Shown here: positions 1,347 through 61,031 of the stretch, in pieces
Layout of the letters: every line of letters begins with the position of its first letter
How positions within the stretch are numbered: the stretch's first letter is position 1
NCBI GenBank assembly: GCA_002085025.1
Contig: MZGK01000002.1
Span: 15,341 to 79,340 of the forward strand
Reading direction: 5' to 3'
Origin: Candidatus Omnitrophica bacterium 4484_213
Lineage (GTDB): Bacteria > Omnitrophota > 4484-213
DNA: 64,000 nt
The notes under the pieces: model-generated
Database searches by the model: none
What the model was told of the DNA's origin: nothing
Seen by the model: only the letters and a program-made list of their open reading frames with translations
Translations under genes and position numbers: made by a program

Positions 1347-1395
1347 TCACTGATGGTACTAATTCTTATCACTGATAACTCATCAGTGTAATCAG
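1347..1395. repeat. CACTGAT / ATCAGTG palindromic repeat cluster immediately 5' of the SPOR gene start
   Basis: atcactgatggtac...atcactgataactcatcagtgtaatcag. The 19-bp palindrome CACTGAT-N5-ATCAGTG matches copies at 19786, 24205 and 49990. Confidence 0.7.
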
Positions 1396-1419: not shown

Positions 1420-1530
1420 CTTTAAGTTTACCCCGTTAGAAAGCTCCTTTCCTCCGTGGGGCGAGGTTAAAATCCCGTTCCCTTTCTTGTAGGGGCAATC
1501 CTTATAAGAACGATAGAAAAACTGCCCCTA
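1420..1530. repeat. Diverged copy of the GTTTACCCCGTTAGAAAG (REP-like) element
   Basis: tttaccccgttagaaagctcc...ggggcaatccttataagaacgatagaaaa resembles the 4045 and 26548 copies in its left arm and internal hairpins. Confidence 0.5.
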
Positions 1531-1552
1531 AATTGCTTTCTGAGGGGGGTCG

Positions 1553-4037: not shown

Positions 4038-5658
4038 TCCGAATTATCAACGAATTTACCCCGTTAGAAAGCCCCGTTTCCTTCTTCCTTATAGGGGCAA
4101 ATTCCTTATAGGAACGATAAAGAAGTTGTTCCCATTTATACTTGATAGAATTAGTCATTAGGCATTCTAGAATTCTTTTTACTACCTGTTGGATACTCAT
4201 CTCTGTTGTATCAATATAAATCGCGTCTTTGACCCTTTTTAAAGGAGCAACCTTTCTTTCGCTGTCCTTTTTGTCTCTAATTTTGATATTTTGCTCAATT
4301 TTTTCCAGAGATAATTTTTCTCCTTGTAGAGCTCCTGGTTGAGTAAGGAGTTGCTTGTATCGCCGTTTTGTTCTTTCTTCTATAGAGGCGTCTAAGTAAA
4401 ATTTCTTTGCCTGCGGGAAGACAACACTTCCTATATCTCTGCCCTCAGCAACGATATCTTTCCCCTCGCTTATCTTCCGCTGCAAGATAACCATCCTTTT
4501 TCTTATTTCAGGGAGTTTTGCCAAATAGAAAACTTTATTGGTTATCTCCTCTTTTCGGATTTCCCTCTCCACATCTTTCCCATCGAGAAGCAAAACCGGT
4601 TTCTTCGCTTTTTTAAAGCGGAAATTAATCTCTGTTTCTTGACACATTTTTATCAAGCGAGCCTTATCTCTTAAGTCAATCCCCTCCTTTATTGCCTTTA
4701 AGGTAATCGCCCGATACATTGCCCCAGTATCTAAATAGTAAAAACCCAATTTGGCTGCTAATTTTTGGCTAACTGCGCTCTTTCCTGCTCCTGCAGGCCC
4801 GTCAATAGCAATAACTATTCTCTCCTCCTTTAATTTTTTCTGCCTCGCTTTTTTAAATTCCTTTGTTATTTCCTGTGAATCCCCCTTCTGAATTAAATCT
4901 CGCATTATTATTAAATGTTCAATAAAAGCCTCAAGGGCCCTGCTAATTTCTTCTTTGTTGTCTATGCAGATATCCCTTCGCAATGAAGCATCGCTTAAAG
5001 CAATGCGGGTTGAATCTTTCCAACCCTTAGCCGCATATTTTAGGTATCTCTCAGAGACGGAATTCACCAAACTTACGGCGGCAATATGGGGCAAATGGCT
5101 TATCTCGGCTACAATTTTATCGTGCTGAGCAGCAGAGGTAATTTTTGCCCTGCTTCCTACCTCTTCCCATAATTGTTTAACCTTTTTTAAAGCGGCTATA
5201 TCTGTTTTCTTTGATTTTATTAAAAAGGTAAGTGAGTTAGCGAAGAGATCTCTACGCGCAGCTCTCACTCCTTTCTTCTCTGAGCCGGCTAAGGGATGAC
5301 CGCCAACAAAATGGATTTCCCGCGGGAGAATTCTTTCTATTTCTTGTGTAATTTTCTTCTTAGTGCTACCTACATCGGTTATCAGAGAACCTGCACGCAA
5401 AAAAGGGATGATCTTCTGGACAGTAGAAACAACTTCTCCCACCGGGGTGCAGATAATTATTAACTCACTTTCTTGGGCATCTTTTAGTTTTAAACTTCCT
5501 TTATCTATCGCTCCGAGTTTCACTGCCTCCTCTATTGTCTTCTCATGTTTAGCAATGCCAAAGACTTGTCTTGCTAACTTTTTTCTCTTTATAACCAATC
5601 CTAAAGAACCACCGATTAGACCTGTGCCAATAATGGTAATTTTATTGAATTTTTTCAT
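3946..5658 (-). CDS. Prephenate dehydrogenase fused in frame to cytidylate kinase; the 3' end of the ORF reads through a repeat element
   Basis: N-terminus has IIGTGLIGGSLG and HPLAG (TyrA). From about nt 4815 downward it reads IAIDGPAGAGKS...YLDTGAMYR (Cmk). The C-terminal 35 aa (YKWEQLLYRSYKEFAPIRKKETGLSNGVNSLI) are a translation of the repeat at 4045-4142, so the true stop is uncertain. Confidence 0.75.
   Translation of the reverse strand: MKKFNKITIIGTGLIGGSLGLVIKRKKLARQVFGIAKHEKTIEEAVKLGAIDKGSLKLKDAQESELIIICTPVGEVVSTVQKIIPFLRAGSLITDVGSTKKKITQEIERILPREIHFVGGHPLAGSEKKGVRAARRDLFANSLTFLIKSKKTDIAALKKVKQLWEEVGSRAKITSAAQHDKIVAEISHLPHIAAVSLVNSVSERYLKYAAKGWKDSTRIALSDASLRRDICIDNKEEISRALEAFIEHLIIMRDLIQKGDSQEITKEFKKARQKKLKEERIVIAIDGPAGAGKSAVSQKLAAKLGFYYLDTGAMYRAITLKAIKEGIDLRDKARLIKMCQETEINFRFKKAKKPVLLLDGKDVEREIRKEEITNKVFYLAKLPEIRKRMVILQRKISEGKDIVAEGRDIGSVVFPQAKKFYLDASIEERTKRRYKQLLTQPGALQGEKLSLEKIEQNIKIRDKKDSERKVAPLKRVKDAIYIDTTEMSIQQVVKRILECLMTNSIKYKWEQLLYRSYKEFAPIRKKETGLSNGVNSLIIRNALLFFPLSGKDFFQNIFSPKSTGNRKYSF
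4045..4142 (+). repeat. REP-like element family 1 (atcaacgaatttaccccgttagaaagccccg...ggaacgataaagaagttgttcc...), copy 1
   Basis: Near-identical about-95-bp copy at 26548-26646. Contains hairpins gcccc...ggggc and ggaac-GATAAAGAAGTT-gttcc. Confidence 0.8.
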
Positions 5659-11711: not shown

Positions 11712-12462
11712 TCAATCCTCCGAACCTTCTATTCCTTTTTTTGAAATCAGCAATTGCCTCTAAAAAATCGCTCTTCTGAAAATCGGGCCAGAATTTTGGA
11801 GTGAAATAAAGTTCACTATAAGAAATCTGCCAGAGCAGAAAATTGCTGAGCCGCAGCTCGCCGCTGGTGCGAATCAAAAGGTCAGGGTCGGGAAGCTCTT
11901 TTGTGTAAAGATACTTAGAAAATAGACGCTCATCGATTTTATTTATCTTTACCTTCCTTTTTTGTATATCTTCAGCAATTTTTTTCACTGCGCTGATGAT
12001 TTCCTGGCGACTGCCATAATTTAAGGCAATGTTTAAGATCAACCCTTTGTTATTCTTGCTCAATTTCTCTGTTTTGCTCAACTCTTTTTGCACTGCCTTA
12101 GGCAACCTTTCTCTTTCGCCAATAGAAATAAGATGGATATTTTTTTCTTTTAGAAGTTCTCTTTTTTCTATCAGAAATTTTTTTAAAAGGCGCATTAAGC
12201 CCTGAACCTCTGAAGACGGACGTTTCCAGTTTTCTGAAGAAAAAGCGTAGAAGGTAAGGACTGCAATTTTTTGCTCAACTGCGGTTCTTATTATTTCTTC
12301 TACTGTTTCAATTCCCTTTTTATGGCCCTCAATGCGCGACAATCCCCTCTTTTTTGCCCAACGCCCGTTTCCATCCATTATAATGGCAATATGTTTTGGA
12401 CCTTTGGATAACTTCTGCATTTTAACAAGTGAAGTGTTTTTACTACTCTTAAAAAGTACCAA
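11692..12462 (-). CDS. uppS: Undecaprenyl diphosphate synthase; true start probably MQKLSKGPKHIAIIMDG at about 12420, because the N-terminal 14 aa of the ORF come from the repeat
   Basis: HIAIIMDGNGRWA...FSSENWKRP motifs. Confidence 0.9.
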   Translation of the reverse strand: MVLFKSSKNTSLVKMQKLSKGPKHIAIIMDGNGRWAKKRGLSRIEGHKKGIETVEEIIRTAVEQKIAVLTFYAFSSENWKRPSSEVQGLMRLLKKFLIEKRELLKEKNIHLISIGERERLPKAVQKELSKTEKLSKNNKGLILNIALNYGSRQEIISAVKKIAEDIQKRKVKINKIDERLFSKYLYTKELPDPDLLIRTSGELRLSNFLLWQISYSELYFTPKFWPDFQKSDFLEAIADFKKRNRRFGGLSVEENN

Positions 12463-12582
12463 GAAAAGTTTAAAATGTCTAATTGCTCTAATTAAATAAA
12501 AATTTGGTGATTGGTTATTATTTGGTTATTGTATCTTGGTGTTTGGTTATTATCTGTTTAGGTCAATTAGACATTAGACATC
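12456..12582. mobile_element. MITE-like element family 2 (TIR aatgtctaattg ... caattagacatt; internal TTGGTTATT subrepeats), internally deleted copy
   Basis: Shares both ends with the about-200-bp copy at 51741-51958, including flanking gtaccaagaaaagtttaaa. Confidence 0.7.
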
Positions 12583-13622: not shown

Positions 13623-13946
13623 TCACTTCCTCACATTATAAACTATATCATCGGCATCAAATTGATGGTTGCCGTCATTATCAAGGAAGATAACTACTGT
13701 CCCTGCTTTAGTATTATCTATTTTTACATCACTACCAGCCGGGTCTTTTGCCGTTATTGTCCCGCCAGTTCCGCATCCCCCATTTGCTACAGTTTCATTA
13801 GTAACACAGACCATCAACCCTGCTGTTCCCAACTTCTCCACCTGCTGGCCAATGGGAGTTACTACTGTGCGGATTTTAATTTCATCAGAGAGGCAAAGCC
13901 GCGAATAACAAAACTCGCGAAGCGAGAGCCGAAGTTCCCCCTGCAC
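13623..13946 (-). CDS. Small hypothetical protein. The N-terminal about 25 aa of the ORF are a translation of the structured repeat unit, so the real start is probably internal (e.g. MVCVTNET)
   Basis: MQGELRLSLREF is the same repeat-derived peptide seen at the C-terminus of ORF 56254..57138. The remainder (GGCGTGGTITAKDPAG...DNDGNHQFD) has no recognisable family. Confidence 0.3.
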   Translation of the reverse strand: MQGELRLSLREFCYSRLCLSDEIKIRTVVTPIGQQVEKLGTAGLMVCVTNETVANGGCGTGGTITAKDPAGSDVKIDNTKAGTVVIFLDNDGNHQFDADDIVYNVRK

Positions 13947-14025
13947 CAGAACGGTGCAGGATCCGCCGAAGCCTTAGCGTAGATGAGCTGAGGATAGAAG
14001 GTTTGAAAGCAAACCTTCACTATCC
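13913..14025 (+). ncRNA. Structured repeat unit (family 4): ctcgcgaagcgag-AGCCGAAG-[variable hairpin]-CTGAGGATAG-[GC hairpin]-T-run
   Basis: Same architecture as the units at 56262, 57783 and 60727. The terminal hairpin gaaggtttg-aaa-gcaaaccttc covaries with ggaaatctgc-aaa-gcagatttcc of the other copies. Confidence 0.6.
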
Positions 14026-14637
14026 TTTTTCCTTATTTATTTTCACTTTCCTCCCTTCCACCTTCAATCTCCCTTCGGCAAACAGTTTAATTGTCAAAGG
14101 ATAAATGATATGCTCTTGGCGGTGAATCTTCTGGCGCAGAGATTCTTCATTATCATCTTCCTCTATCTCTACGACTCTTTGGAGGACAATTGGGCCATTA
14201 TCTATCTTTTCATCTACAAAATGGACAGTGGCTCCACTGAACTTCACCCCATAATTTAGGGCATCGCGAACAGCATTTGTTGAGCCTTTAAACGCCGGGA
14301 GCAGACTTGGATGGATGTTAAAAATCTTATTAGGATACTTCTGGACAAAAAAAGGACTAAGTACGCGCATAAACCCGGCTAAAACAATCAGCCCAATGTT
14401 CTCCTCTTGTAAATAAGCAATGAGTTCCTTCTCAAATTCCTTTTGGGAAGAAAATTCCTGGGAGTCAAGAAATATTGTTTTAACTGCGGCTTTCTTTGCC
14501 CTTTGCAGGCAATGCGCCTCTTTATTATCGCTCACCACCAAAGAGAGCCTTGCTTTGATATCTCCACGCTGAACTGCCTCAATAATTGCCTGCAGGTTGG
14601 TGCCCTCTCCCGAACAAAAAACGGCAATATTTAACAC
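14020..14637 (-). CDS. purN: Phosphoribosylglycinamide formyltransferase
   Basis: IAVFCSGEGTNLQAII...NIHPSLLPAFKG. Confidence 0.85.
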   Translation of the reverse strand: MLNIAVFCSGEGTNLQAIIEAVQRGDIKARLSLVVSDNKEAHCLQRAKKAAVKTIFLDSQEFSSQKEFEKELIAYLQEENIGLIVLAGFMRVLSPFFVQKYPNKIFNIHPSLLPAFKGSTNAVRDALNYGVKFSGATVHFVDEKIDNGPIVLQRVVEIEEDDNEESLRQKIHRQEHIIYPLTIKLFAEGRLKVEGRKVKINKEKG

Positions 14638-15798: not shown

Positions 15799-17310
<1,512 letters not shown>

Positions 17311-17376
17311 TTAAGCGGCAAATCCCTCGCTGGGGGATTTGACCGCGTGCTTCGTGCGACCAACCCTATGCCGACC

Positions 17377-19785: not shown

Positions 19786-19822
19786 CTTTATCACTGATTA
19801 CACTGATGAATTATCAGTGGCA
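19786..19822. repeat. CACTGAT palindrome (atcactgattacactgatgaattatcagtgg) between the PGI/PMI stop and the metK SD
   Basis: 19-bp perfect palindrome CACTGATGAATTATCAGTG, seen directly. Confidence 0.7.
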
Positions 19823-20850
19823 TTAGTGTTTTTCTTTAGTTGCTTCTTTAGGTAGTCTATTTTCTCCACCGGCGTGGGGTCAACCTTATTCAATAAAGCG
19901 AGATAATAAGAAATAAAATCACCTATATAGACCAACGAAAAAGTGCGCGCCAAGAGAGACTCTCCTCTTGACCAGATTTCCAAAATCCCTGCCTTTTCTT
20001 TTATAATCTCCTGAGAGACACAAAATCTCTTTTTGATAGGGGTATTTTCTTTCTTGTCGCGCAAAAAAAGCACCCTGAAGTCTCTAAGCAAATAAGGAAA
20101 CTCCCAGCCTACTATCTCATTGTGATTCATCTCCGGCAGAAAATTGACCGATGATAAGGTCTTACTATTCTCAGCCAACTGCTGTTTTAGGCGGATTGCC
20201 ACGGCGGCAAAAGAATTAGCGGTATAAATAATAGGAAGTTTATTTAAAAAAGAAAGCGAAACTTTTTTTGCCTCATTTTCTTTCTCTTCCATAATCTCCT
20301 TCTTGACCTTTTCTAAAGTAAGAATCGTCTCGCCGATATCTTCTTTCTTTTCAGAAATGAGTCCATATTGAAAAAGAAGAATCAAAGGAATAAAGAAAGA
20401 ATAAGCCAAAGCAGTGCGCGGGGGCATCCCGGAAGGAATAGTTATAAAGGAAACCTTGTCGCGTTGAGCTTTTTTAATCAGTTCACCTCCTGAACTAATA
20501 ACCACTAAATCTGCCTTTTTTTTCTTTACCTCTTCATAGGCAGCGAGCGTTTCCTCAGTATTTCCTGAGTAACTGTTTACAAAAATGAGCGTCTCGCTAC
20601 TTACAAAATTAGGGAGGGAATAATCTCTGTTTACAAAGATAGGGATTTTTATTTCGTTATTCAAATAACCTTTAAGTAGCTCGCCGGCGATTGCCGAACC
20701 TCCCATCCCGCTAAATATTATATTTCTATAAGCGCTTCGGGCTTTACGCTTTGCAGTTTGCGCTTTCTTTCCTATCTCCACCGCCTCTTTAATTTGCTGA
20801 GGAAAAGCGAGTAATTTCTCCCACATATTTGATTTATCCAGATTCTCCAT
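19798..20850 (-). CDS. Bifunctional phosphoglucose/phosphomannose isomerase (SIS domain)
   Basis: Two SIS-like halves (FSGMGGSAIAGE...) typical of archaeal-type PGI/PMI. The last about 8 aa derive from the palindrome repeat. Confidence 0.65.
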   Translation of the reverse strand: MENLDKSNMWEKLLAFPQQIKEAVEIGKKAQTAKRKARSAYRNIIFSGMGGSAIAGELLKGYLNNEIKIPIFVNRDYSLPNFVSSETLIFVNSYSGNTEETLAAYEEVKKKKADLVVISSGGELIKKAQRDKVSFITIPSGMPPRTALAYSFFIPLILLFQYGLISEKKEDIGETILTLEKVKKEIMEEKENEAKKVSLSFLNKLPIIYTANSFAAVAIRLKQQLAENSKTLSSVNFLPEMNHNEIVGWEFPYLLRDFRVLFLRDKKENTPIKKRFCVSQEIIKEKAGILEIWSRGESLLARTFSLVYIGDFISYYLALLNKVDPTPVEKIDYLKKQLKKNTNATDNSSV

Positions 20851-22982: not shown

Positions 22983-24203
22983 CTAAATCAAATTCCTCTG
23001 CAAGAGGTTGATTAAAAGAGCTGCCAATTTTTCGGAGTTATGACGCACATAATTAGAGGTGTCGATTATATCTCCTTGCACTACTGCATAACCTCTCTTT
23101 CGAATTCTTTCTGTATCTAAAACAACAGGGTAGGCATTTTCTTGTTTATATTTAGCCAGTAACTCATCAGGTACAGGGGCGCTATTTATAACACAATAAT
23201 TAACAATTTGAGGATAGGTATGTTTTATTATAGCCGCTAAATGCTCAAAAGCAGTATACCCATCAGTCTCTCCGGATTGGGTCATTACATTGCATACATA
23301 AACCTTGATTGCTTTACTTCTCTTTATTGCTTCCTGAATTTTTCTAATTAGAAGATTGGGAATTACACTGGTATATAAACTCCCAGGACCTAAAATGATA
23401 AGTTCGGCATCCTCTATCGCCTGAATAGCCTCAAAGGTAGGTTGGCAGTTATCAGGCTTCAGAAAAACCCGTTCTATAGAAAGATTGGCTTTTGTAATAT
23501 TTGTTTCTCCTTCGATTACTCTCCCGTTTTTCCCCCGGGCAATCAAAGAGACGTTTTCTAAGGTAGAAGGAACTACTTTTCCTTGAATAGCTAAAACTTC
23601 GCTTGATTTTCTTATCGCTTCTTCAAAATCTCCGGTGACATCTGTAAGAGCAGCAATAAATAGATTGCCAAAACTATGTCCACTTAAATCACCATTCTTA
23701 AAGCGATAATTAAAAAGGTTCTTCATTAAAGGTTCGGTTTCTGCTAAAGCGACCAGGCAGTTTCTGATGTCCCCCGGAGGGAGCATATTAAATTGTTTAG
23801 TCAGTCTCCCCGAGCTGCCGCCGGTATCCGTTACAGTAACAATTGCAGTAATATTATCTGTATACTTCTTAACCCCGTGCAAAAGTGTAGAAAGACCCGT
23901 CCCTCCGCCAATGGCTACAATTTTGGGGCCCCATCTTAACTGCCTTTTTTGGTAGATGATATCTACTATTTTTTCTTCCTGTTTTGGCAAAAGAACATTT
24001 ATGAATACCTTTATTATTTTCTCTATGCTTAAAATTACCGCCCCTATTCCTGCGATGAGCAGCAGAAGTCCCGACTGCTTAATAGGAAATTCGGCAGAAG
24101 CCCATCGGACGGCTCCCGAAGTAATCATAATAATCCCGAGGGTGCATAAACATATCCATCTCTTTATGCGCATTCCCGGGTATAGCCATTTTATCAGTTT
24201 CAT
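22983..24203 (-). CDS. YvcK-like gluconeogenesis factor (CofD/UPF0052 family) with N-terminal TM segments
   Basis: IVAIGGGTGLSTLLHGVKKYTDNITAIVTVTDTGGSSGRL is the YvcK signature. Confidence 0.8.
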   Translation of the reverse strand: MKLIKWLYPGMRIKRWICLCTLGIIMITSGAVRWASAEFPIKQSGLLLLIAGIGAVILSIEKIIKVFINVLLPKQEEKIVDIIYQKRQLRWGPKIVAIGGGTGLSTLLHGVKKYTDNITAIVTVTDTGGSSGRLTKQFNMLPPGDIRNCLVALAETEPLMKNLFNYRFKNGDLSGHSFGNLFIAALTDVTGDFEEAIRKSSEVLAIQGKVVPSTLENVSLIARGKNGRVIEGETNITKANLSIERVFLKPDNCQPTFEAIQAIEDAELIILGPGSLYTSVIPNLLIRKIQEAIKRSKAIKVYVCNVMTQSGETDGYTAFEHLAAIIKHTYPQIVNYCVINSAPVPDELLAKYKQENAYPVVLDTERIRKRGYAVVQGDIIDTSNYVRHNSEKLAALLINLLQRNLI

Positions 24204-24204
24204 A

Positions 24205-24262
24205 ATATCACTGATGACACTGATTATTGCTGATTACACTGATGAACTATCAGTGTAATCAG
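24205..24262. repeat. CACTGAT palindrome cluster (37-bp perfect palindrome cactgattacactgatgaactatcagtgtaatcagtg) at the yvcK start
   Basis: Seen directly. Confidence 0.7.
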
Positions 24263-24268
24263 TGTTGT

Positions 24269-24823
24269 TTAGAATACCTCATTCAACCCTTTTTCTTTAT
24301 TCATCTTTGCCAGGAGTTTTTCGTCCAATTGTTTAGCCGGATGGAGCCCCATCCTCTTTGCTCTCTGGGTTAAAGCAGCGACCTCAATAAGTGTGGCTAT
24401 ATTCCTTCCTGGACGCACCGGGATTATTAAATAGGGCAATTTAACATCCAGGATTGCATAAGTTTTTTCCTCTAATCCTAAACGTTCGTATTCTTGGTTT
24501 GAATCCCACTTCTCTAAGCAAACAACCATTCCAATCCTTTTTTGATTTCGAACCGCTCCTACTCCAAATATATCTTTCACATTTATAATTCCTAACCCTC
24601 TAATCTCTATATAATGCTTTATTAATTCATCAGCACTTCTCCCAAGCAAGATTTTCTTTCCTTTAAGTTCAATATGTACCATATCATCAGCAACTAAGCG
24701 GTGTCCTCGCTCTATTAATTCTAAAGCACATTCGCTTTTCCCTGCTCCGCTTTTGCCGGTAAGTAATACTCCCACACCATAGACATCTACTATAGTACCA
24801 TGAAGGGTAAGGGTATTTTTCAT
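24269..24823 (-). CDS. hprK: HPr kinase/phosphorylase, short form (catalytic C-terminal domain only)
   Basis: VYGVGVLLTGKSGAGKSECALELIERGHRLVADD P-loop. Only 184 aa. Confidence 0.8.
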   Translation of the reverse strand: MKNTLTLHGTIVDVYGVGVLLTGKSGAGKSECALELIERGHRLVADDMVHIELKGKKILLGRSADELIKHYIEIRGLGIINVKDIFGVGAVRNQKRIGMVVCLEKWDSNQEYERLGLEEKTYAILDVKLPYLIIPVRPGRNIATLIEVAALTQRAKRMGLHPAKQLDEKLLAKMNKEKGLNEVF

Positions 24824-26529: not shown

Positions 26530-28831
26530 TTAAAAGTAGAGAGATATCAACGAATTTACCCCGTTAGAAAGCCCCGTTTCCTTCTTCCTTATAGGGGCAA
26601 ATTCCTTATAGGAACGATAAAGAAGTTGTTCCCATTTATACTTGATAGTCAATATCTCAGGCAACTTTTCTATGTTTCTAGCTGTGGCTTGGGCAAAGTC
26701 AACCTTCCCCCCGCCTCTTCCATCCAGCTGCTCGGCAATTTCATTAATCACCTGTCCACAGTGAATTTTCCCGCTTAAATCTCTCGTGGTAGTCATTATT
26801 AAATAAATCTTATTATCCTTCACCGAGGCCAAGCCAATAACATCTAAATCTATCTTTTTTCTGAGAACATCGGAGATCTCTCTTAATTCAGGAAAATCAA
26901 AACCGAAGAACTGGCGAATAACTACATCCCTTTCCTTCTCCTGATTAAGAGAAGCAAAGATGTCCTTAGCATAATAACCAAATAATTCTCTTTTCAATCT
27001 CTCATTTCTCTTCTTCGACTCTTTTAGCTGCTGAATAATATCCTTTGCTTTCTCAATTATTTTTTTACGCGAAGCAGAAAAGATTTGGGCAAGCTCTTCA
27101 ATCTTGTTTTCTTCTTCTTTTATTAATTGATAAAGTCCTTCGGACATGGACACCACCACAAAATTCCTTACTGTAATTACCGATAGAAACAACTTGCACT
27201 TCTTCTCCATATTTCTCCTCAAACAAACCAATTGCCCCAGCCTCAATTGCTTTTTGTTTGGGCATTAATTCCCTTTCCACGGCGTCATTGTTTAAAATTC
27301 TATTATTAACCATTTCCTCTACCTTTGTCAACTCCTCTTTGGTTAAACCCCGGGGGTGGGTAAAGTCAAAATGGAAATAAGCCGGAAAGATAATGGAACC
27401 GGCCTGTCTGATATGTCTGCCCAGAATTTCTCTTAACACACTTTGCAAAATGTGAGTGGCTGTGTGATTGCGAGCAACATCTATCTCTTCTTCTCCCCAC
27501 ACCCCTAGCAAAGGTAATCCTTGCTTTTTTGCCCTTTCCTTTTCATCTTGCTTAGTAAAAATTTGTTTATTAAAAACTGATTTTTCTCTTGAACGCCGAC
27601 GTTGTTTTTCCACATATTGAATGAATTTCTGCCTATTTAACTCAATTCCTCTCTGGGAGACCAAATTTTCAATTTCTTCATAGGGAAGACCATAAGTATC
27701 ATAGAGTTCAAAAGCGGTTTTTTCGTTTATATCCTTTTTGTTATCTAAAATTGATATCGCTCGATTTATTGTTTGGATAAATTTCGCTTCTTCCTCTTTT
27801 ATTGTTTCTTTTATCCTTTTTTCTGCCTCTTTGACCTCAGGATAAACGCCCTCGGCGAGTTTGACAACAACTGGCACTAAATTATATAAAAAAGGAGATT
27901 CTATCTTTAAATCTCTCCCCAAACTGGCTGCCTTGCGAATCAACTTTCTAATTACATAGCCTTCCCTTTCATTAGCGGGAATAGCACCATCAGCAATGGT
28001 AAATACGACCGCTCGGATGTAATCAGCAATGATATAATGAGCGGGTAGCGGGTAGCGGGTAGCGGGTAGCGGGAGAGATTCTACGATTAGCTTGAAGAGG
28101 TCGGTTTCAAAGTCGTTTCGCACACCTTGGAGCACTGCAGTGAGTCGTTCCAGGCCCATCCCGGTATCAACATTCTTATTTTTCAATTCTTCTATTTTGC
28201 CCTTATCGCGATTAAACTGGGTAAACACAAGGTTCCACACCTCTATAGAGTTATCGGGGCAGAATTCTTCCCTGCCTTGCTGGCCAGTAGCTTCCCAATC
28301 ATAGAAAATTTCCGAACAAGGACCACAAGGCCCATCCGGACCCTCCTCCAGGGCATTGCTTGGCCAGAAATTCTCTCTCGAACCAAATTTTTTAATCCTT
28401 TCTTCAGGAAGCCCGATTTTCTTTTTCCATATTTGCGCGCTCTCTTCATCGTCTTCAAAGACTGAAACCCATAACTTCTCAGCCGGGAGGCTTAACTTTG
28501 AGGTCAAGAATTCCCATGCCCACTTAATCGCCTCTTCCTTATAATAATCCCCAAAAGAAAAATTGCCCAGCATCTCAAAGAATGTGTGGTGGCCTGGAAC
28601 CCTCCCTACTTCTTCTATATCGGCTGTCCGCAAGCACTTCTGACAGGAAGCCGCTCTTTTTAGATCTTTGGGTGGATGCAAAAAGAACTCCTTGAATTGA
28701 TTCATCCCTGCTGAGGTGAATAATAAGGAAGGGTCATCTTGGGGAAGCAGAGAAGATGAAGGAAAAATCTTGTGCCCCTTTTCCTTGAAGAAACTCAAAA
28801 ATTTCTCTCTGATTTCATTAGCAGTTGTCAT
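26530..28831 (-). CDS. alaS: Alanyl-tRNA synthetase, split into two overlapping ORFs (27098..28831 and 26530..27246) by a frameshift near nt 27150; the C-terminus reads into REP-like element
   Basis: N-terminal catalytic core (FTSAGMNQFK...), then FCGGVHV where the frame is lost, and the continuation SEGLYQLIKEE...DHHA1 GRGGGKVDFAQA in another frame. Confidence 0.8.
26548..26646 (+). repeat. REP-like element family 1, copy 2
   Basis: Near-identical to 4045-4142. Confidence 0.8.
28041..28073. repeat. Heptanucleotide tandem repeat (GCGGGTA)x4.7 inside the alaS coding sequence
   Basis: gcgggtagcgggtagcgggtagcgggtagcggg encodes LPATRYPLPA in frame. Confidence 0.8.
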
Positions 28832-33471: not shown

Positions 33472-33610
33472 GCTCCAATAACCAAGATACAAGATACAAA
33501 TAAATTCCAATATTCAGTAATCAATAACCAAACCAAAACAATAACCTCTGTTTGGTTATTGGAATTTGGTGATTGGTTATTATTTGGTTATTGTATCTTG
33601 GTTATTAAAG
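33472..33610. mobile_element. MITE family 2, internal-fragment copy lacking the TIRs
   Basis: aataaccaaaccaaaacaataacctctgtttggttattggaatttggtgattggttattatttggttattgtatcttgg matches the internal part of 51741-51958. Confidence 0.65.
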
Positions 33611-34604
33611 GAACAAATCCTATCCTCTCCCGCACCTCTTTTAATGTTCTCTCAGCCCGTTCGCTCGCTTTCTCTGCTCCTTGCTTTAAGATGGTAAGTA
33701 TATATTCTTTATCACCAATAAGTTTTTTATACCTATTTTGTATCGGACGCAACGTCTCAATAATTAACTCGGCAAGTTCTTTTTTAAATCCAGCATAGTT
33801 TTCGTCTTTAAACTGTTCTTCTAATTTGGCTATAGGTATCCCCGATAGACAAGAATAGATAGTCAAGAGATTGCTTATACCTAATTTTGTTTTATTTGCC
33901 TTTATCTCTCTTCCTGAATCTGTAACGGCTTGTCTAATCTTTTTGAGCACCACCGATGGTTCATCTAATAAAGCAATATAGTTGTTAGAATTGAGGTCGG
34001 ATTTGTCCATTTTACGTTCGGGATTGAGCAAACTCATTATTCTTGCTCCTGCTCGGGAAATATAAGCCTCGGGAATTTGGAATACCTTTCCGTATAAATT
34101 ATTAAATCTACTGGCAATGTTTCTGGTTAATTCAAGATGCTGCCTCTGGTCATCTCCGATAGGCACAATATTGGCTTGATATAGCAATATATCAGCAGCC
34201 ATTAGCACAGGGTATACATAAAGTCCGGCATTAACATTGGAGGAATATTTCCTTGCTTTATCTTTGAATTGGGTCATTCGGTTCAATTCACCGACGTTGG
34301 TGAAGCAGTTCAGAATCCAAGCCAATTCTGCATGCGCCGGGACATTGGACTGAATAAATATTATACTTTGTTCTGGGTCTATTCCCGAGGCAAGATATTG
34401 AGCGGCAAACGATATAGAGCGCTCTCGCAGAGTAGATGGGTCTTGGCGCACTGTAATTGAATGCATATCTACAACTATAAACAGACAATCATAGTGGGCC
34501 TGCATCTGGCTCCAGTTCTTTAATGCCCCGATGTAATTACCTATGGTGAGATTTCCGGTAGGGGCAACGCCGCTCAAGAGTATTTTTTTATTATTGATTT
34601 TCAT
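33588..34604 (-). CDS. trpS: Tryptophanyl-tRNA synthetase
   Basis: Class I fold, GVAPTGNLTIGNYIGAL (HIGH-like) and KMDKS. Confidence 0.9.
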   Translation of the reverse strand: MKINNKKILLSGVAPTGNLTIGNYIGALKNWSQMQAHYDCLFIVVDMHSITVRQDPSTLRERSISFAAQYLASGIDPEQSIIFIQSNVPAHAELAWILNCFTNVGELNRMTQFKDKARKYSSNVNAGLYVYPVLMAADILLYQANIVPIGDDQRQHLELTRNIASRFNNLYGKVFQIPEAYISRAGARIMSLLNPERKMDKSDLNSNNYIALLDEPSVVLKKIRQAVTDSGREIKANKTKLGISNLLTIYSCLSGIPIAKLEEQFKDENYAGFKKELAELIIETLRPIQNRYKKLIGDKEYILTILKQGAEKASERAERTLKEVRERIGFVPLITKIQ

Positions 34605-49060: not shown

Positions 49061-50038
49061 CTAACTCACTTTTGTTCTCCCCAAGATTGTGTTCTTGCTT
49101 ATCCTATGGCCGATAATAAATTCCTTACTGCTCATCCTTCTTCTTCCCTCTATTTGCAGTTCCTCTATCCAGAGGCCATTCCTTCCGGTAGAAACCAAAA
49201 TTCCTTTATCTTTATCAATCTTTAATATTTCTCCAAAGAAAGAAGAGGAAGATCTTTTAGGAGCTACCCTTGTCTTCCAGAGTTTTATCCTTCCCCCCCT
49301 CCAGAAGGTAAACGCTCCTGGTTCGGGGGTAAACCCACGAATTAGATTATAGATCTGAGAGGCCGGTTTTGACCAATCAATTTCCCCATCGCTCTTATTT
49401 AATTTGGGAAAATAAGTGGCTTCTTTCTCATTCTGGGCAGCGAGCACTACCTTTTTATGTCTGATTAATTCTATTGTTTTAAGCAAAGCCAGCGCTCCTT
49501 CTTCTGCTAGACGCCGACCTAACTGGCCAGCGTTCTCTTCCTCCTTTATCTCTATCTCTTTCTGATAAATTATCTCCCCGGCGTCTATCCTCTCGCTAAT
49601 CTTAATTACTGAAATCCCCGTTTTTTTTTCTCCGTTGATTAAAACCCAGTTAATCGGGGCCGGGCCGCGATATCTGGGCAGTAGAGAAGGATGGAGATTT
49701 ATAGAGTAAATTTTGGGGATGCTCAGAATTTCTTTAGTTAACTTTCGGCCGTAATTTACTACTATAAATAATTCCGGTTCATCTTTCTTTAAGGTATCTA
49801 TAAAATCCGACAAGAGATTCTCGGGTTGATAGATGGAGAACCTTTGCCGTTGAGAAAATTCCTTTATCGGGTCAATACCTATTTTCAGTCCCCTTCCCTT
49901 TCTTTTATCTGGTGAAGCCACCACTCCTAAAATCTGGTATCTGGGAACAAGTTTTTTGAGAGAAACTAAAGCAAATTCTCCATTTCCCCAAAATATTATC
50001 TTCATTTTATCACTGATTACACTGATTATCAGTGACAT
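49061..50038 (-). CDS. fmt: Methionyl-tRNA formyltransferase
   Basis: MKIIFWGNGEFAL...NLHPSLLPRYRG...C-terminal Fmt domain. Confidence 0.8.
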   Translation of the reverse strand: MSLIISVISDKMKIIFWGNGEFALVSLKKLVPRYQILGVVASPDKRKGRGLKIGIDPIKEFSQRQRFSIYQPENLLSDFIDTLKKDEPELFIVVNYGRKLTKEILSIPKIYSINLHPSLLPRYRGPAPINWVLINGEKKTGISVIKISERIDAGEIIYQKEIEIKEEENAGQLGRRLAEEGALALLKTIELIRHKKVVLAAQNEKEATYFPKLNKSDGEIDWSKPASQIYNLIRGFTPEPGAFTFWRGGRIKLWKTRVAPKRSSSSFFGEILKIDKDKGILVSTGRNGLWIEELQIEGRRRMSSKEFIIGHRISKNTILGRTKVS

Positions 50039-50085
50039 CAGTGTTTAATATCAGTGTAGTCAGTGTTTGATCAGTGCCATTAGTG
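49990..50085. repeat. CACTGAT palindrome cluster at the fmt start (atcactgattacactgattatcagtgacatcagtgtttaatatcagtgtagtcagtg...)
   Basis: Multiple CACTGAT/ATCAGTG units, seen directly. Confidence 0.7.
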
Positions 50086-50089
50086 TTAT

Positions 50090-51796
50090 TCAGAAGAAAA
50101 ACAAAGGGTCAACATCTACTATTATCCTTTTATCTACTCTCTTTCGCTGAAACTCGGCTAATACTTTTCTCAGAGATTGATTTGTTTTGAGGACATTTTC
50201 TGTCCTCAAGGTAATATACCAGGAATTTAAAAAATTGGCCGGTCCTAAAATCCTCTCTTTGCCAAATTCCCTTCTTAAATCCTCTGATAACTCCGTTATT
50301 CTTTTCTTTAATCTCTGTTCGTCTTTGTCCTTTAAAATTATATTAATAAAATGTACAAAAGGAGGATACTTTAACTGGCGGCGATAGGTTATTTCCTGTG
50401 TGTAAAAATCCTCGTAATCTTCGCTGATAGCCGCAGTGATGCTGAAGTGAGCAGGGTTATAGGTTTGAATAATGAGTTCTGCTTTTGCCTGCTGGGCTTC
50501 CCTGGCTATCTGAAAAAGGAGCTCGAAGGTACGCTCACTTGCCAGGAAATTAGGAGAATTAAGGACACTATCGGCGGAGAGAACTCCTATTAAGCCCACC
50601 TGGAAAAAACTCTCGCCCTGCACTTTCCTCTGTCTGCCTAATTTCTCATAGATAATAACTCTTTTCTTCTTGGCCAGACATTCATCTATCTTTGCTTTTA
50701 AAAAAGGAGAAAGAGAAAGCCTCTCTTTGTTTCTATCTATTATCCTTATATTGGGAGAGATGTTATTGCCTCTTGTCTTTAACTTTAAAAGTTGATATCT
50801 CCCCGAAATGGTTTTATGATAGGATTCCAGGCAAGGGATAACGCTGCCTAAGACTACTATTGCTTTTTCTATCTTCGCTCTCTTGATTGCCACATTGCGG
50901 GCATTATAGCGAGGGATATTCTCCTCTTTGTAAGAATTGTCCTGCTCTTCGTCGACAATAATCAGCCCCAAGTTTTTCAAAGGCGAAAAGACCGCTGACC
51001 TCGTGCCAATGACAATCCGGGCATCTCCCTTCTTTATCCTCTGCCACTCTTGAAATTGCTGGCGAGAAGAAAGTTGAGAGTGGTACTCAGCAATTATCTC
51101 TCCAAAATGAGAAATAAATCTTGCAATTATCTGAGAAGCTAAAGAAATCTCAGGCACTAATATAATTACCCCTTTATTTTGGCTGAGAATGCTTTCAATT
51201 ATGTGCAGATAAATCTTTATTCTTTCCTCGCTTTGTCCATACACCAGAAAAGTCCGTGGCTGGTTCTCCTTCATTGCCCTGATAATCTTATCTGCGCCTA
51301 AAGGCGCCTCAGGTTTCAAATCTAAATTTTCTTTCTCCTCCACCCACCTGTAGCGCGGAGGTGCAAGCGAGGTCGCTCTTGTCTTTTGCACTCCCCTTCG
51401 CAAGGCCGGGGGGAGAGTTATCGCCAATGCCTCCCCCCAGGAGCAAAAGTAGTATTCCGAAAGCCATTTAACCAAAGATAACAAAGAAGAGGTGATAATC
51501 GGCTGGCTATCGATTACCTTTTTAATCTCTTTAACCTTCTTTAACTTCGATTCCTTGACTAATCCAACTATATAACCAACTGTCTTTTTGTTCCTAAATT
51601 CTACCCAGACCCTTTTGCCGATTTCAGCTTCTTCTCTTAGATGGTCGGGAACGGCGTAATCAAAAACTTTATCCACCGGAAGGTTTAAAACAATTTGGGC
51701 ATAGTTCATAACCAGGCTGTCGACTTTTCTAAAAGTAGCGAGTACCAAGAAAAGTTTAAAATGTCTAATTGCTCTAATTAAATAATAAATCACCAA
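50090..51796 (-). CDS. priA: Primosomal protein N' (PriA) homolog with degenerate Walker A and no Cys-rich zinc region; true start probably MNYAQIV at about 51706
   Basis: Aligns to E. coli PriA across the helicase core (LVPEISLASQ, IIVDEEQD, GTRSAVF), but GVTGSGKTE is replaced by YGQSEERIK and no CxxC clusters are seen. The first 30 aa of the ORF derive from the MITE. Confidence 0.75.
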   Translation of the reverse strand: MVIYYLIRAIRHFKLFLVLATFRKVDSLVMNYAQIVLNLPVDKVFDYAVPDHLREEAEIGKRVWVEFRNKKTVGYIVGLVKESKLKKVKEIKKVIDSQPIITSSLLSLVKWLSEYYFCSWGEALAITLPPALRRGVQKTRATSLAPPRYRWVEEKENLDLKPEAPLGADKIIRAMKENQPRTFLVYGQSEERIKIYLHIIESILSQNKGVIILVPEISLASQIIARFISHFGEIIAEYHSQLSSRQQFQEWQRIKKGDARIVIGTRSAVFSPLKNLGLIIVDEEQDNSYKEENIPRYNARNVAIKRAKIEKAIVVLGSVIPCLESYHKTISGRYQLLKLKTRGNNISPNIRIIDRNKERLSLSPFLKAKIDECLAKKKRVIIYEKLGRQRKVQGESFFQVGLIGVLSADSVLNSPNFLASERTFELLFQIAREAQQAKAELIIQTYNPAHFSITAAISEDYEDFYTQEITYRRQLKYPPFVHFINIILKDKDEQRLKKRITELSEDLRREFGKERILGPANFLNSWYITLRTENVLKTNQSLRKVLAEFQRKRVDKRIIVDVDPLFFF

Positions 51797-51958
51797 TAAT
51801 CAAGATATACCCTAGCGGGCACAGGCAAGATACAGACAAATTCCAATAACCAAACCAAAACAATAACTCTGTTTGGTCATTGGAATTTGGTGGTTGGTTA
51901 TTGTTTGGCTATTGTATCTTGGTGTTTGGTTATTATCTGTTTAGGTCAATTAGACATT
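51741..51958. mobile_element. MITE family 2, full-length copy (TIR aatgtctaattg / caattagacatt)
   Basis: About 200 bp, terminal inverted repeats at 51761-51771 and 51947-51957. Internal TTGGTTATT / AATAACCAA subrepeats. Related copies at 12456 and 33472. Confidence 0.7.
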
Positions 51959-52862
51959 ACCTGTTAAATAATTTCGCTGAAGGTGAAATTCCGCCGCCTA
52001 AGGCGAGGGAATTAACAGGGCAAATCCCTTCATAATCATAAAATCTTCCTCTTAATTGTGAGATGGGAGAAACCACACCAAGCAGGGTTTGAGCGGCAAA
52101 TTTCCCCAATGCGCAAATTATCCGCGGACGGATTATCCTTATTTGCTCTTTTAAATAAGGAAAGCAATTTTTAATCTCCTGAGGTAGAGGATTGCGGTTT
52201 CCCGGCGGTCGGCACTTTAGAATATTGGTAATATAGACATCTTCTCTCTTTAGACCTATGGACTGGATGATTCGGGTAAGGAGTTGTCCGGCTTTACCCA
52301 CGAATGGTTTTCCTTGCCTATCTTCCTCCTCCCCGGGCGCCTCTCCGACAAATAATAGAGAGGCCTCGTTATTTCCCTCGCCAAATACATAATGTGTTCT
52401 AGTTCTGGCAAGTGGGCACTTTGTACATTGGTGAACTATTTGAGAAAGAAGCTCGAGCTCTTGAGAAGAAGAAATAGAAGGATCAACTTCTTTCCCCTGA
52501 GTGGCTTTCAAAAACAAACCAATCTTGGGTTTGCGGCAGTCGCAACCATCTTCTTCGCGATGCGGGCAGTAATAGACCTCCATCTTTCCCCCTTCTCTTT
52601 TTACCTCTTCAATCATTCGTCGGGTAATCTCGTTTAGGGACTCCTGACTATAAATTCCCTTAGCTATTCCCGATTGATTAGAGATAACCTTAATTTCGTA
52701 CCCCTCTTCAGTCAATCTGCGGATTGCTTTTAAAGCATTGGGCAGAAAATGAAATTCCTCCCATCGAGTAACAAATTTTCTCTCGCCGGGATATCTATTA
52801 ATCACTCCATCGCGGTCTAAAAAGAGTATTTTTTGCATATTAGGTCCTTCGCTCAGGATCAC
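51957..52862 (-). CDS. Fusion protein: HAD-superfamily phosphatase (GmhB / DNA 3'-phosphatase-like) N-terminal domain plus family-4 uracil-DNA glycosylase C-terminal domain
   Basis: FLDRDGVIN...ISNQSGIAKG...YYCPHREEDGCDCRKP (HAD with GmhB-type zinc motif), then CTKCPLA...GEGNNEASLLFVGEAPGEEED...GKAG (UDG family 4). Confidence 0.7.
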   Translation of the reverse strand: MILSEGPNMQKILFLDRDGVINRYPGERKFVTRWEEFHFLPNALKAIRRLTEEGYEIKVISNQSGIAKGIYSQESLNEITRRMIEEVKREGGKMEVYYCPHREEDGCDCRKPKIGLFLKATQGKEVDPSISSSQELELLSQIVHQCTKCPLARTRTHYVFGEGNNEASLLFVGEAPGEEEDRQGKPFVGKAGQLLTRIIQSIGLKREDVYITNILKCRPPGNRNPLPQEIKNCFPYLKEQIRIIRPRIICALGKFAAQTLLGVVSPISQLRGRFYDYEGICPVNSLALGGGISPSAKLFNR

Positions 52863-56238: not shown

Positions 56239-56253
56239 TTACACCTCCTTTCC

Positions 56254-57138
56254 TTACTCGCGAAGCGAGAGCCGAAGTTCCCCGTAGGGGAACTGAGGAT
56301 AGGAAATCTGCAAAGCAGATTTCCGCTTTTGTTTTTTTCCTTTCCTTACTAACGGACAACGCCCACAATCAGGTTTTGTCTTTTTGCAGATATCCTTTCC
56401 TAGACGCACAAAAAGGGCGTGGAACTCGTTGAACAATTGAGCATCTAAAGGTAGGTTCTGCATAAAAAGCTGTTGAATCTCCTGATAATCTGCCTTCTCG
56501 GAAATCAATTGGAGACGCGATAATATCCGGCGGGTATAAGCATCCACCACAAACACTGCTCTATTTCCCGCATAAAGCAAAATAGAATCGGCGGTCTCCC
56601 GACCAATACCTTTAATCTCCAATAACTCCTGACGGAGAAGATGCGTCTCTTTTTTAAACATCCTTTTGACACTACCGCCGTAATTAATAAACAGAAAATC
56701 TATAAACGCCTTCAGCTTTTTTGCTTTTTCATTAAAATAACCCGCAGAACGAATTGCCTTGGCTAAATCTTCGAGCGGCACATCCCTTAACCCTCGCGCC
56801 GAAAGCAACCCTTGTTCTTTGAGATTTCTGATCGCTTTCTCCACATTTGTCCAGGCCGTATTCTGGGTCAAGATTGCTCCGGCAATTATCTCAAGGGAAT
56901 CTTCTCCAGGCCACCAATTTTGTGGACCAAATGCCTTGTAGAGCCGCTGATAAATTGTCTGGATTTTCACCATCTCTTTCCCCCCTATAAAAACAGCAGA
57001 TTCCCGCCTGGATCTAAAAAGAGAAGAGAATCTCCCGCCATCTCCCTTTAACATCCTGCGCGATAACTTTAAATTTATACCAATATCTTTATTCAAACTA
57101 TTATCTATGAGAAGTGCACCTTTTCTTTTATTTTCCAA
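56254..57138 (-). CDS. HhH-GPD base-excision glycosylase (endonuclease III-like). The N-terminal about 57 aa and the C-terminal about 12 aa of the ORF are probably spurious (C-terminus is repeat-derived)
   Basis: GPQNWWPGEDSLEIIAGAILTQNTAWTNVEKAI...IKGIGRETADSILLYA HhH-GPD motifs. The C-terminal ...FPYGELRLSLRE is a translation of the family-4 unit. Confidence 0.65.
   Translation of the reverse strand: MENKRKGALLIDNSLNKDIGINLKLSRRMLKGDGGRFSSLFRSRRESAVFIGGKEMVKIQTIYQRLYKAFGPQNWWPGEDSLEIIAGAILTQNTAWTNVEKAIRNLKEQGLLSARGLRDVPLEDLAKAIRSAGYFNEKAKKLKAFIDFLFINYGGSVKRMFKKETHLLRQELLEIKGIGRETADSILLYAGNRAVFVVDAYTRRILSRLQLISEKADYQEIQQLFMQNLPLDAQLFNEFHALFVRLGKDICKKTKPDCGRCPLVRKGKKQKRKSALQISYPQFPYGELRLSLRE
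56262..56360 (+). ncRNA. Family-4 structured unit (ccttactcgcgaagcgag-AGCCGAAG-ttccccgtaggggaa-CTGAGGATAG-gaaatctgcaaagcagatttc-cgcttttgttttttt) plus abortive start of a second unit
   Basis: On the plus strand it ends in a canonical hairpin-plus-T7 intrinsic terminator. Its reverse complement ends ...CGCGAGTAAGGAAAGGAGGTGTAAATG, i.e. the SD and start of the ACT-domain gene. Confidence 0.65.
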
Positions 57139-57465
57139 TACCCTTTGAAAATCAAGGCGTGAATTTCCTTTGTTTTTCGCTTAAGATGGATCTTTTGACA
57201 TTGATATACAATTCCCTGATTTTTATTTACCTCCCATTTACTTTGAAATGTAAGGGTGCTTATCTCTCCTATTCTTTAATTAGCCGATTATAGGAACCTA
57301 TTTCATCTCTTACTTTTGTCATAAATTATGCCTCACAGATTAAATGCAGATTGCACAATTCTCTATCGTATTTTTATCGCTGTAATCAGCATCGGATTGA
57401 AAATCCGGTGCAATAAAAAACCTTCGCAAAAACAGCAAAGGTTTTTTCATAATTCACTAAAAAAT

Positions 57466-61025: not shown

Positions 61026-61031
61026 GTATAG

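Follow-up and report, generated by a model that had tools for sequence, protein, structure and literature searches.

The window, the whole 64-kb stretch of DNA that was analysed, carries near its left end a repeat unit, copy A, which is wedged between purN and the gene of a small protein, both encoded on the minus strand. Read along the plus strand, copy A consists of a first hairpin (H1), a conserved linker (L1), two internal hairpin modules, a second conserved linker (L2), a terminal hairpin (H3) and a T-run. The features of this locus are:

13623–13913, minus strand: small-protein gene, truncated at its 5' end (RBS, ATG and N-terminus gone)
13914–14035, plus strand: copy A, whole unit, with the part order of the copies at 56–61 kb
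13914–13926, plus strand: H1 CTCGCGAAGCGAG, hairpin CTCGC-GAA-GCGAG with GCGAAGC, followed on the minus strand by TTTTGTTATT
13927–13934, plus strand: L1 AGCCGAAG (CTTCGGCT in the mRNA sense)
13941–13959, plus strand: hairpin module CTGCACC-AGAAC-GGTGCAG, exact reverse complement of CTGCACCGTTCTGGTGCAG, its loop thus flipped
13963–13987, plus strand: degenerate module CCCGCC-[A/G]AAGC[C/T]TTAGCGTA-GGCGGG (compare L002, L019 and L015)
13988–13997, plus strand: L2 CTGAGGATAG (CTATCCTCAG in the mRNA sense)
13992–14025, plus strand: variant H3, inner stem GAAGGTTTG-AAAG-CAAACCTTC at 13997–14018, lengthened by GGATAG/CTATCC
14026–14035, plus strand: T-run (14026–14030) and CCTTA tail to 14035; together with 14020–14025 it encodes the end of purN on the minus strand
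14020–14637, minus strand: purN, phosphoribosylglycinamide formyltransferase (Pfam Formyl_trans_N, 1.3e-53)

The stop codon of purN is the reverse complement of 14020–14022, and its last four codons together with this stop lie inside the tail of the unit. On the other side, the small ORF as called (13623–13946, minus strand, 107 aa) has an N-terminus that is a read-through of the repeat unit. The initial annotation had placed the copy between the purN stop and a small hypothetical ORF; purN is confirmed, whereas the boundaries shift, in that both the end of purN and the N-terminus of the ORF are located within the unit.

The repeat family and the place of copy A

On the plus strand, a unit of the family is made up of CCTTTCCTTA, H1, AGCCGAAG, at least one interchangeable hairpin module, CTGAGGATAG, H3 and a T-run, and covers ~80–120 nt. 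The H1/L1 and L2/H3 portions are constant, and the internal hairpin modules differ in number, type and orientation. The unit ends, CCTTTCCTTACTCGCG on the left and CGCTTTTTGTTTTT or CGCTTTTGTTTTTTT on the right, are not complementary when read from the sequence, and terminal inverted repeats are absent. Units follow each other head to tail in arrays of one to four. Seven of them are present in the window: copy A alone at 13.9 kb, copy B alone at 56.3 kb, the pair C and D at 57.8 kb and the trio E, F and G at 60.7–61.0 kb. The features belonging to the copies other than A are:

56247–56349, plus strand: copy B, one canonical unit, filling the spacer from the HhH-GPD glycosylase gene to the RBS of the ACT-domain gene
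57774–58015, plus strand: copies C and D, two units, making up most of the csp leader
58056–58084, minus strand: predicted sigma-70 promoter TTGACA-17-TATGCT, directly upstream of the csp array and kept in all csp alleles
60727–61072, plus strand: copies E, F and G with the distal module GGATAAAAGTATAGTTAG, a 335-nt array absent at the 95%-identical AUK068 locus

Copy A had been described at the outset as a distant member of this family with the same order of parts, 42 kb from its relatives. Every part listed there is present on the plus strand, and the next copy is 42,343 nt away. The 21-mer CTCGCGAAGCGAGAGCCGAAG occurs four times in the window (at 13914, 56257, 57784 and 57875); 100 shuffles yielded no copy. 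A covariance model, R1, was trained on 11 units, drawn from the window and from related genomes and not including copy A, and was run over the whole 64-kb window with filters off. Copy A (13914–14030) was recovered with 51.6 bits (E 1.1e-9) over model positions 1–81 of 81; the five top matches in the window are the four window units used in training and copy A, and matches outside the family reach at most 15 bits in the 64 kb, so that the copy aligns clearly better than random sequence does. Its H3 can be aligned column by column with the canonical GGAAATCTGC/GCAGATTTCC, the changes being paired.

The variable region of copy A is a mosaic of a flipped CTGCACC module, whose counterpart CTGCACCGTTCTGGTGCAG is present in other units (L015, L012, L014, L018), and the degenerate CCCGCC...GGCGGG module. 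The second GCCGAAG that had been remarked upon in this region is found at 13965–13971, and is explained by the degenerate module that sits there. In front of H1, copy A has AATAACAAAA and not the CCTTTCCTTA that abuts the reverse complement of RBS and start codon; its orthologue L040 keeps AAGGAAAGGAGGTAAAAATG. The missing CCTTTCCTTA/RBS junction fits a secondary deletion. Copy A is a true member of the family, albeit a rearranged and atypical one rather than a clean unit.

Beyond the window, the 21-mer was found in three MAGs of Candidatus Omnitrophota, namely AUK068 (on many contigs), CSMAG_2044 and CSMAG_2090, and in 17 metagenome contigs, three of which (L020, L030, L033) match by chance only, in coding DNA of high GC content. 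With R1, 42 units were obtained from the window and the loci of the three MAGs. The metagenome loci gave 25 matches, 22 of them genuine units; the remaining three, namely one overlap on the reverse strand, one match cut off by the end of a contig and the chance match in L033, were discounted. The AUK068 contig L012 is syntenic with 53.7–62.0 kb of the window at ~95.5% identity, which identifies the source of the window as a close relative of the AUK068 MAG. The family is thus dispersed, as had been proposed, and not confined to one array: it is present at four sites of the window, in at least three MAGs of Omnitrophota and in ~14 contigs from metagenomes. In viral contigs the 21-mer was absent, and the 11 matches to a looser pattern equalled the chance expectation, none of them fitting the model; an association with phages or mobile elements was set aside on the strength of this search. 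We found no published account of such repeats for Omnitrophota. The family is a previously undescribed, lineage-specific, mosaic and hairpin-rich interspersed repeat of Candidatus Omnitrophota.

Stem covariation and the question of strand

Among 38 distinct units, 96% of the modelled pair cells hold standard pairs (97% for the H3 cells). Changes on both sides were observed at all 6 pairs of H2 and at all 10 pairs of H3, which bears out the covarying terminal hairpin of the initial annotation; H1 is nearly invariant. Intermediates in other genomes, GAAATTTGC/GCAAATTTT, GAAAGTTTGC/GCAAGCTTTC and GAGGTTTGT/GCAAATCTC, link the H3 of copy A to the canonical form, and GAGATTTGT/GCAAATCTC and GAAAGTTTGC/GCAAACTTTC are further ones. 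The covariation is real as a pattern, yet it is no proof of a functional RNA, because the stems contain G-T and A-C mismatches in roughly equal numbers (37 versus 32 in a strand-symmetric hairpin scan), and because loops have also been flipped, as in H3 of L026, L028 and L040 and in the CTGCACC module of copy A. The higher count of G-T over A-C (22 versus 9) after fitting to the covariance model was discarded as a pointer to the functional strand, since the alignment itself favours G-U.

The plus orientation folds more stably than the minus orientation in 45 of 54 units, with folding z values of −6.1 (plus) and −3.0 (minus) for copy A. Folding energy is confounded by G/U content and by the kinship of the units, and was rejected as a guide to the functional strand. 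It should be recorded that a purely minus-sense RNA role does not predict this greater plus-strand stability, which may reflect G/U content only.

Several assignments for the unit were tried and set aside. A search of the whole window with Rfam 15 returned three tRNAs only and no match to the repeat; for 13800–14150 the best score was 19 bits, against a gathering score of 97. A hammerhead ribozyme had been considered on account of CTGAGGA, but the next hairpin is followed by CGCTTTT and not by GAAA, and both a stem III and an Rfam match are lacking. A mini-ORF within the unit is at odds with a variable part that is not a multiple of 3 and with an unconserved start codon, and a promoter in every unit, with TATCCT as −10 element, lacks an acceptable −35 element at 16–18 nt and does not appear among the predicted promoters.

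The sequence GCGAAGC occurs in H1 and in many H3 loops. It belongs to an extraordinarily stable type of DNA mini-hairpin (GCGNAGC) (PMC13037366), a hint that single-stranded DNA may matter for the dynamics of the repeat.

Position, polarity and turnover of the arrays

In 27 non-orthologous arrays, the sequence to the left of H1 is CAT-N5-9-(C)CTCC-TTTCCTT (CAT-N5-9-CCTCC-TTTCCTTA), antisense to the gene in all of them; immediately beyond the H1 end comes the reverse complement of 'AAGGAAAGGAGG-N-ATG'. Read in the sense of the gene, H1 is followed directly by TAAGGAAAGGAGG, a short spacer and ATG. The arrays fill the stretch between a promoter, or the stop codon of the gene before, and the Shine-Dalgarno sequence of the gene on the opposite strand, and they consequently lie, with one polarity, in mRNA leaders. 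Within the 64-kb window, all ORFs taken as genes are on the minus strand, and the units are antisense to them. According to Pfam, the genes that follow arrays encode proteins of nucleic-acid binding and translation (CspA, two HU-family proteins, EF-Ts, ribosomal protein S13), metabolism (GAPDH, IlvC, IlvD, RibH, PanD, biotinyl-carrier protein), energy and redox chemistry (ATP synthase subunit c, two flavodoxins) and secretion or pili (secretin, T2SS-F protein, two pilins), in addition to an ACT-domain protein, DUF5320 and a zinc-ribbon protein. Many of these genes are of kinds that are typically highly expressed, such as those for CspA, HU, GAPDH, EF-Ts and S13.

From the predicted promoter at 58056–58084, a minus-sense transcript would run through copies D and C into csp, and a similar TTGACA motif precedes the array of the ACT gene in L012 and L023. 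Judging from gene order and promoter prediction, the arrays are most likely transcribed in the sense of the gene, as mRNA leader or as intercistronic RNA. Whether a unit sequesters or exposes the Shine-Dalgarno sequence was approached with RNAfold; the unpaired probability of 0.55 with arrays versus 0.47 at element-free loci shows no clear difference and is uninformative, the picking of start codons being imperfect.

Five arrays located beside genes of stable RNAs have the opposite, that is the sense, polarity:

AUK068: sense arrays after tRNA-Ile and after tRNA-Ala inside the 16S operon
CSMAG_2090: sense array after tRNA-Ala
Between tRNA-Cys and tRNA-Leu: sense array
CSMAG_2044: sense array after a truncated tRNA

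In these arrays, too, a CCTTTCCTTA-like sequence precedes H1, and CCTTTCCTTA is therefore part of the unit. Units within stable-RNA operons belong to a subtype whose T-run is degraded, and both orientations of the unit coexist in one co-directional locus, L015.

On the plus strand, H3 with its T-run fits the pattern of an intrinsic terminator in five of the seven window units. In copy A, the G+C-rich stem at 13997–14018 is followed by the tail ACTATCCTTT, with a T-rich tract within 0–2 nt; this terminator-like site has no obvious target, as there is no gene-like ORF on the plus strand in 64 kb. On the minus strand, H1 of copy A and the tail TTTTGTTATT are terminator-like as well; this signal, which follows purN, is weak (5 bp) and arose by deletion.

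The array content of a locus changes, by gain, loss and reshuffling, far faster than its sequence does by point substitution. At the ACT gene, one unit in the window corresponds to four units and a promoter-bearing palindrome in AUK068. At csp, there are two units in the window and none in AUK068, where only the distal half of H3 is left. At the flavodoxin gene, the three units of the window (335 nt) are missing in AUK068, in which the upstream gene and the flavodoxin gene overlap by ATGA; the insertion in the window gives the upstream gene a new C-terminus, and the flavodoxin gene of the window is a pseudogene with a 127-nt internal deletion. An exact look-up of the CspA protein led to 20 contigs with leader alleles of ~65, 170 and 290 nt, corresponding to 0, 1 and 2 units, all with the same promoter and a 100% identical CspA protein; the one-unit allele also has a second type of module. 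Unit numbers likewise differ in the orthologous pairs L014 (4) and L021 (1) and L010 (2) and L022 (1), and the content of H2/H3 modules differs between the orthologues L016 and L026 and between L017 and L019.

Many arrays have a CCTTTCCTTA-like sequence at either side, yet it is also the junction between units, and an unambiguous target-site duplication was not seen; in the one apparent empty site, an A/T-run is split. Nor did an unsystematic look turn up a transposase, RAYT included, or any other mobilising function. The idea that the element brings the RBS with it was abandoned, since the csp RBS AAGGAAAGGAGGTGAAATAAGTAATG is intact in unit-free alleles, although these look like deletion derivatives.

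The purN locus exists in three states. In the empty state (L036–L038), a 157-nt spacer contains a different palindrome, a GGAGG RBS and the ATG, and R1 has no match above 15 bits. In the canonical state (L040), an array, antisense to the genes and scored by R1 at 43.1 bits, extends from one base past the purN stop to CAAGGAAAGGAGGTAAAAATG of an intact small gene. In the fused state (the window and L039), H1 runs directly into ...TTTTGTTATTCGCGG..., which aligns with ...GCGTGAGTTTTCTGTTATCCGCG... in the signal-peptide codons of the intact genes. The small-gene homologues are 79–95% identical. Three of them start with MIKRFLSVLICVSFLLSASICVSDEIKIRT... or similar, and orthologues have the N-terminus MIKRFLSVLICVSFLL..., which we read as hydrophobic and signal-peptide-like; the window protein and its 95% relative start with VQGELRLSLREFCYSRLCLSDEIKIRT, the translated repeat unit. 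The C-terminus of PurN is NKEKG* in the window, compared with NPKPQ* at the element-free orthologous locus. The simplest history suggested by these extant states would begin with the acquisition of a canonical array in the spacer, followed by a deletion between GCGAG in the 3' arm of H1 and GCGTGAG in the signal-peptide codons. By this deletion, the small gene would have lost its RBS, its ATG and ~13 codons; the distal end of the unit now provides the last four codons and the stop of purN.

Interpretation and relation to known repeats

Taken together, copy A is probably best understood as a rearranged member of a fast-recombining, mainly selfish or near-neutral leader repeat that has side effects on mRNAs. 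Once transcribed, an array would form a row of stable hairpins in the leader, ending directly at the RBS. Its polarity may be kept since, in the other orientation, H3 and the U-run would terminate transcription between promoter and gene; alternatively or in addition, the unit may spread by way of the polar, RBS-like TAAGGAAAGG(AGG) and A-run that border each unit. The turnover would be explained if the conserved segments and short direct repeats undergo recombination or slippage. This selfish or near-neutral reading is favoured because the arrays are hypervariable in front of identical proteins, are lost without visible consequence and cause collateral damage to genes. We infer that the family is unlike a conserved regulatory RNA in its behaviour, though its units may have a generic, stabilising or insulating function in leaders. 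The enrichment in front of genes of typically highly expressed kinds, the strict abutment to the RBS and the preserved stems are observations that also fit a selected leader function.

Such a selected module, in which the hairpins and SD-like junctions (UAAGGAAAGG) stabilise the mRNA, insulate the RBS or recruit the 30S subunit and thereby raise the output of highly expressed genes, with copy A as a broken example, is the strongest of the alternatives, although we consider it rather unlikely. It would explain why the H1 end is always at the RBS with one polarity in the 27 arrays, why many of the genes behind them are typically highly expressed, and why stems are preserved through double changes. 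The promoter just upstream makes H3 a hairpin near the 5' end, and the 5'-most hairpin of csp has its G-U pairs only in the minus sense. Against this stand the 0, 1 or 2 units between the same promoter and an identical CspA, the presence or absence of arrays between 95%-identical genomes, a predicted accessibility of the Shine-Dalgarno sequence that does not clearly differ from that at element-free loci, and the fact that two of the window arrays adjoin damaged genes, namely the truncated small gene and the flavodoxin pseudogene.

It would be more surprising if the units acted at the level of DNA, their hairpins serving as single-stranded substrate of a HUH-type enzyme (RAYT, IS200/IS605-like) or as sites for nucleoid proteins, with the RNA structure being incidental; we regard this as improbable. 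The stable GCGAAGC mini-hairpin, the fast gain and loss, and the loop inversions together with the symmetric G-T/A-C decay, which point to DNA-level processes, are in line with such a role. Yet an unsystematic look noticed no associated transposase gene, the units are arranged head to tail and not as inverted REP pairs, and a conserved 5' GTAG is absent; furthermore, polarity tracks the neighbouring gene and not the replication strand, and both orientations occur in co-directional L015. Finally, it is very improbable that the unit is read on the plus strand up to H3 and the U-run, be it as the gene of a small RNA, as cis-antisense RNA or to stop antisense transcription: although the terminator pattern in five of seven units, the more stable plus-strand folding and the sense units after tRNA genes and within the 16S/tRNA operon would agree with it, the plus strand has neither a conserved promoter, the upstream sequence being the variable start of a coding region, nor a gene-like ORF in 64 kb, stem mismatches carry no strand signal, the loops of H3 and other hairpins are found flipped, and the T-run is degraded in the stable-RNA-operon subtype.

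Known repeats offer several points of comparison for a selfish or near-neutral leader repeat. The BOX elements of Streptococcus pneumoniae and S. suis are modular composite repeats with a variable number of internal modules; they are intergenic, co-transcribed, predicted to form stem-loops and variable between strains, can alter the ends of genes, and have been reported to affect neighbouring genes depending on their orientation (PMC3049150). The Omnitrophota units share the arrangement of fixed terminal modules around variable internal ones, a resemblance in kind only. They differ as head-to-tail units of three hairpins with the fixed linkers AGCCGAAG and CTGAGGATAG, abut the Shine-Dalgarno sequence in strict polarity, belong to a different phylum and have no known sequence relationship to BOX. 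SPRITE repeats of pneumococci are dispersed stems with a U-rich tract, whose positions are thought to be limited by terminator activity (PMC3049150). The Omnitrophota unit is likewise a stem followed by a U-rich tract. SPRITEs, however, are for the most part sense-oriented and lie at the 3' end of a gene, whereas the Omnitrophota units lie at the 5' end of protein genes, turn their terminator-like side away from them, and, unlike SPRITE, adopt the sense orientation only beside tRNA and rRNA genes.

The REP/BIME elements of enterobacteria and the REPIN/RAYT systems comprise high-copy extragenic palindromes in mosaic arrays with conserved linkers, which evolve fast both inside a genome and from one genome to another (PMC2817692, PMC3116915). 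Mosaic arrays, conserved linkers and fast change are common to the Omnitrophota repeats; the REPs of a BIME alternate in orientation and REPINs are inverted pairs, in contrast to direct repeats of 80–120 nt with three hairpins. REPs are imperfect palindromes of 20–40 nt with a 5' GTAG, a motif that the Omnitrophota units have inside some modules only. Correia (NEMIS) and ERIC elements are small repeats, co-transcribed with their neighbours, that change mRNA processing, stability and expression in an orientation-dependent manner (PMC3049150, PMC3184786). The likeness to the Omnitrophota units is that of small repeats; Correia and ERIC have long terminal inverted repeats, and Correia TA duplications, whereas the Omnitrophota ends CCTTTCCTTACTCGCG and CGCTTTTTGTTTTT do not form terminal inverted repeats. 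The latter are a defining feature of MITEs as well, which the Omnitrophota units lack. The 5' stabiliser stem-loops and STAB-SD sequences of Gram-positive mRNAs, as in the cryIIIA and aprE leaders, are single, locus-specific features. Their relation to the leader hairpins and the SD-like GAAAGGAGG of Omnitrophota would be a functional analogy only, as they are not dispersed and the Omnitrophota units form a dispersed, hypervariable family. The repeat is an undescribed example of the familiar class of small interspersed repeats and not a new kind of system.

A bolder variant would have the unit as a self-propagating cassette that homes to ribosome-binding sites via its own RBS-like ends. Taken as a whole, including a tuning of expression, this proposal is doubtful. 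If true, a standard row of hairpins, in some arrays with a promoter-like module, would be placed before highly expressed genes, and leader length, and so expression, would be tuned by rapid gain and loss of units, a dial driven by recombination at the level of populations in Omnitrophota. The csp leader alleles with 0, 1 and 2 units constitute a natural series for testing effects on expression.

For annotation, the units are to be masked or modelled, and not taken as terminators, sRNAs or coding sequence; gene callers make chimeric ORFs from them, as exemplified by the 107-aa ORF that starts inside the repeat. Copy A damaged its neighbours, and such repeats rewrite gene ends, here with an altered C-terminus of PurN and a lost start of the small gene. 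A handful of model bacteria have been examined thoroughly for small interspersed repeats, whereas uncultivated phyla have received hardly any such attention. Omnitrophota have a hypervariable, strictly polar mosaic repeat that fills the stretch from promoter to RBS at many core genes.

A second module family and its settings

A second module family, of the form TTCCTTATAGGxxCGATAGAGAAGTTGxxCC...TATAC and with a covarying hairpin, recurs in the window and in L015, a locus of the Omnitrophota genome AUK068.

Copies of the second module
Window 1498-1543
Window 4102-4147
Window 17273-17318
Window 26602-26647
Window 57905-57950
Window 60939-60984
L015 2235-2285
L015 2930-3000

Read in gene sense, the module conserves a TATAAT-like hexamer, and it might be a promoter-bearing module. 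It is found as a solitary copy, nested inside the loop of H1 (the CTCGC-GAA-GCGAG hairpin at the end of the mosaic unit), and, at pilin genes, between H1 and the ribosome-binding site; the 16S-tRNA spacer of AUK068 holds it as well. Two 104-nt stretches (repeat family D5; window 4045-4148 and 26545-26648), which are 100% identical to each other and both lie upstream of - strand genes, contain both the TTTACCCCGTTAGAAAGC motif and this module.

The palindrome at the predicted csp promoter and its surroundings

The palindrome CCCTGTTAAAT...ATTTAACAGGG (window 58084-58140; about 3030-3100 in L012, the syntenic AUK068 contig; 2905-2950 in L036) adjoins TTGACA, the predicted -35 of the promoter of csp, the CspA gene. 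The palindrome also precedes other arrays and is present at the purN locus that lacks the element, which makes it another dispersed element, besides the unit family. A 348-nt segment (window 57045-57391) in the interval from csp to the HhH-GPD glycosylase gene is absent from the AUK068 contig, which is 95% identical to the window. Downstream of the three-unit array E-G, the flavodoxin gene (window 60583-60729, - strand) is shortened by a 127-nt internal deletion in comparison with AUK068 (L012 6813-7050), which leaves a 44-aa ORF; it is probably a pseudogene.

Other repeats in the window

A repeat of ~120-200 nt, located at gene boundaries and rich in short TTGGT/ATTTGG repeats (families D4, D8 and D12), is 96-98% identical between window 12455-12576 and 51741-51959, and partly present also at 33522-33638. 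Short inverted and tandem CACTGAT/ATCAGTG repeats form clusters (window 1370-1395, 19788-19833, 24192-24269 and 49994-50087), found directly upstream of several - strand gene starts, and the heptamer AGCGGGT is tandemly repeated 4.9 times without mismatch inside a - strand ORF (window 28040-28073).

Stable-RNA loci in relatives

At L015 1373-2131, the AUK068 16S rRNA gene carries, near its 3' end, a group I intron (Rfam RF00028, 61 bits), and the operon continues with tRNA-Ile, tRNA-Ala and then a protein gene, not 23S rRNA. At about 2010-2046 of L003, another of the related loci, a tRNA-like 5' half (GGACCGCTAGCTCATCTGGTAAAGCACCG) breaks off sharply where it meets a unit's CCTTTCCTCA/H1 end, and may represent another gene truncated by the mosaic repeat.
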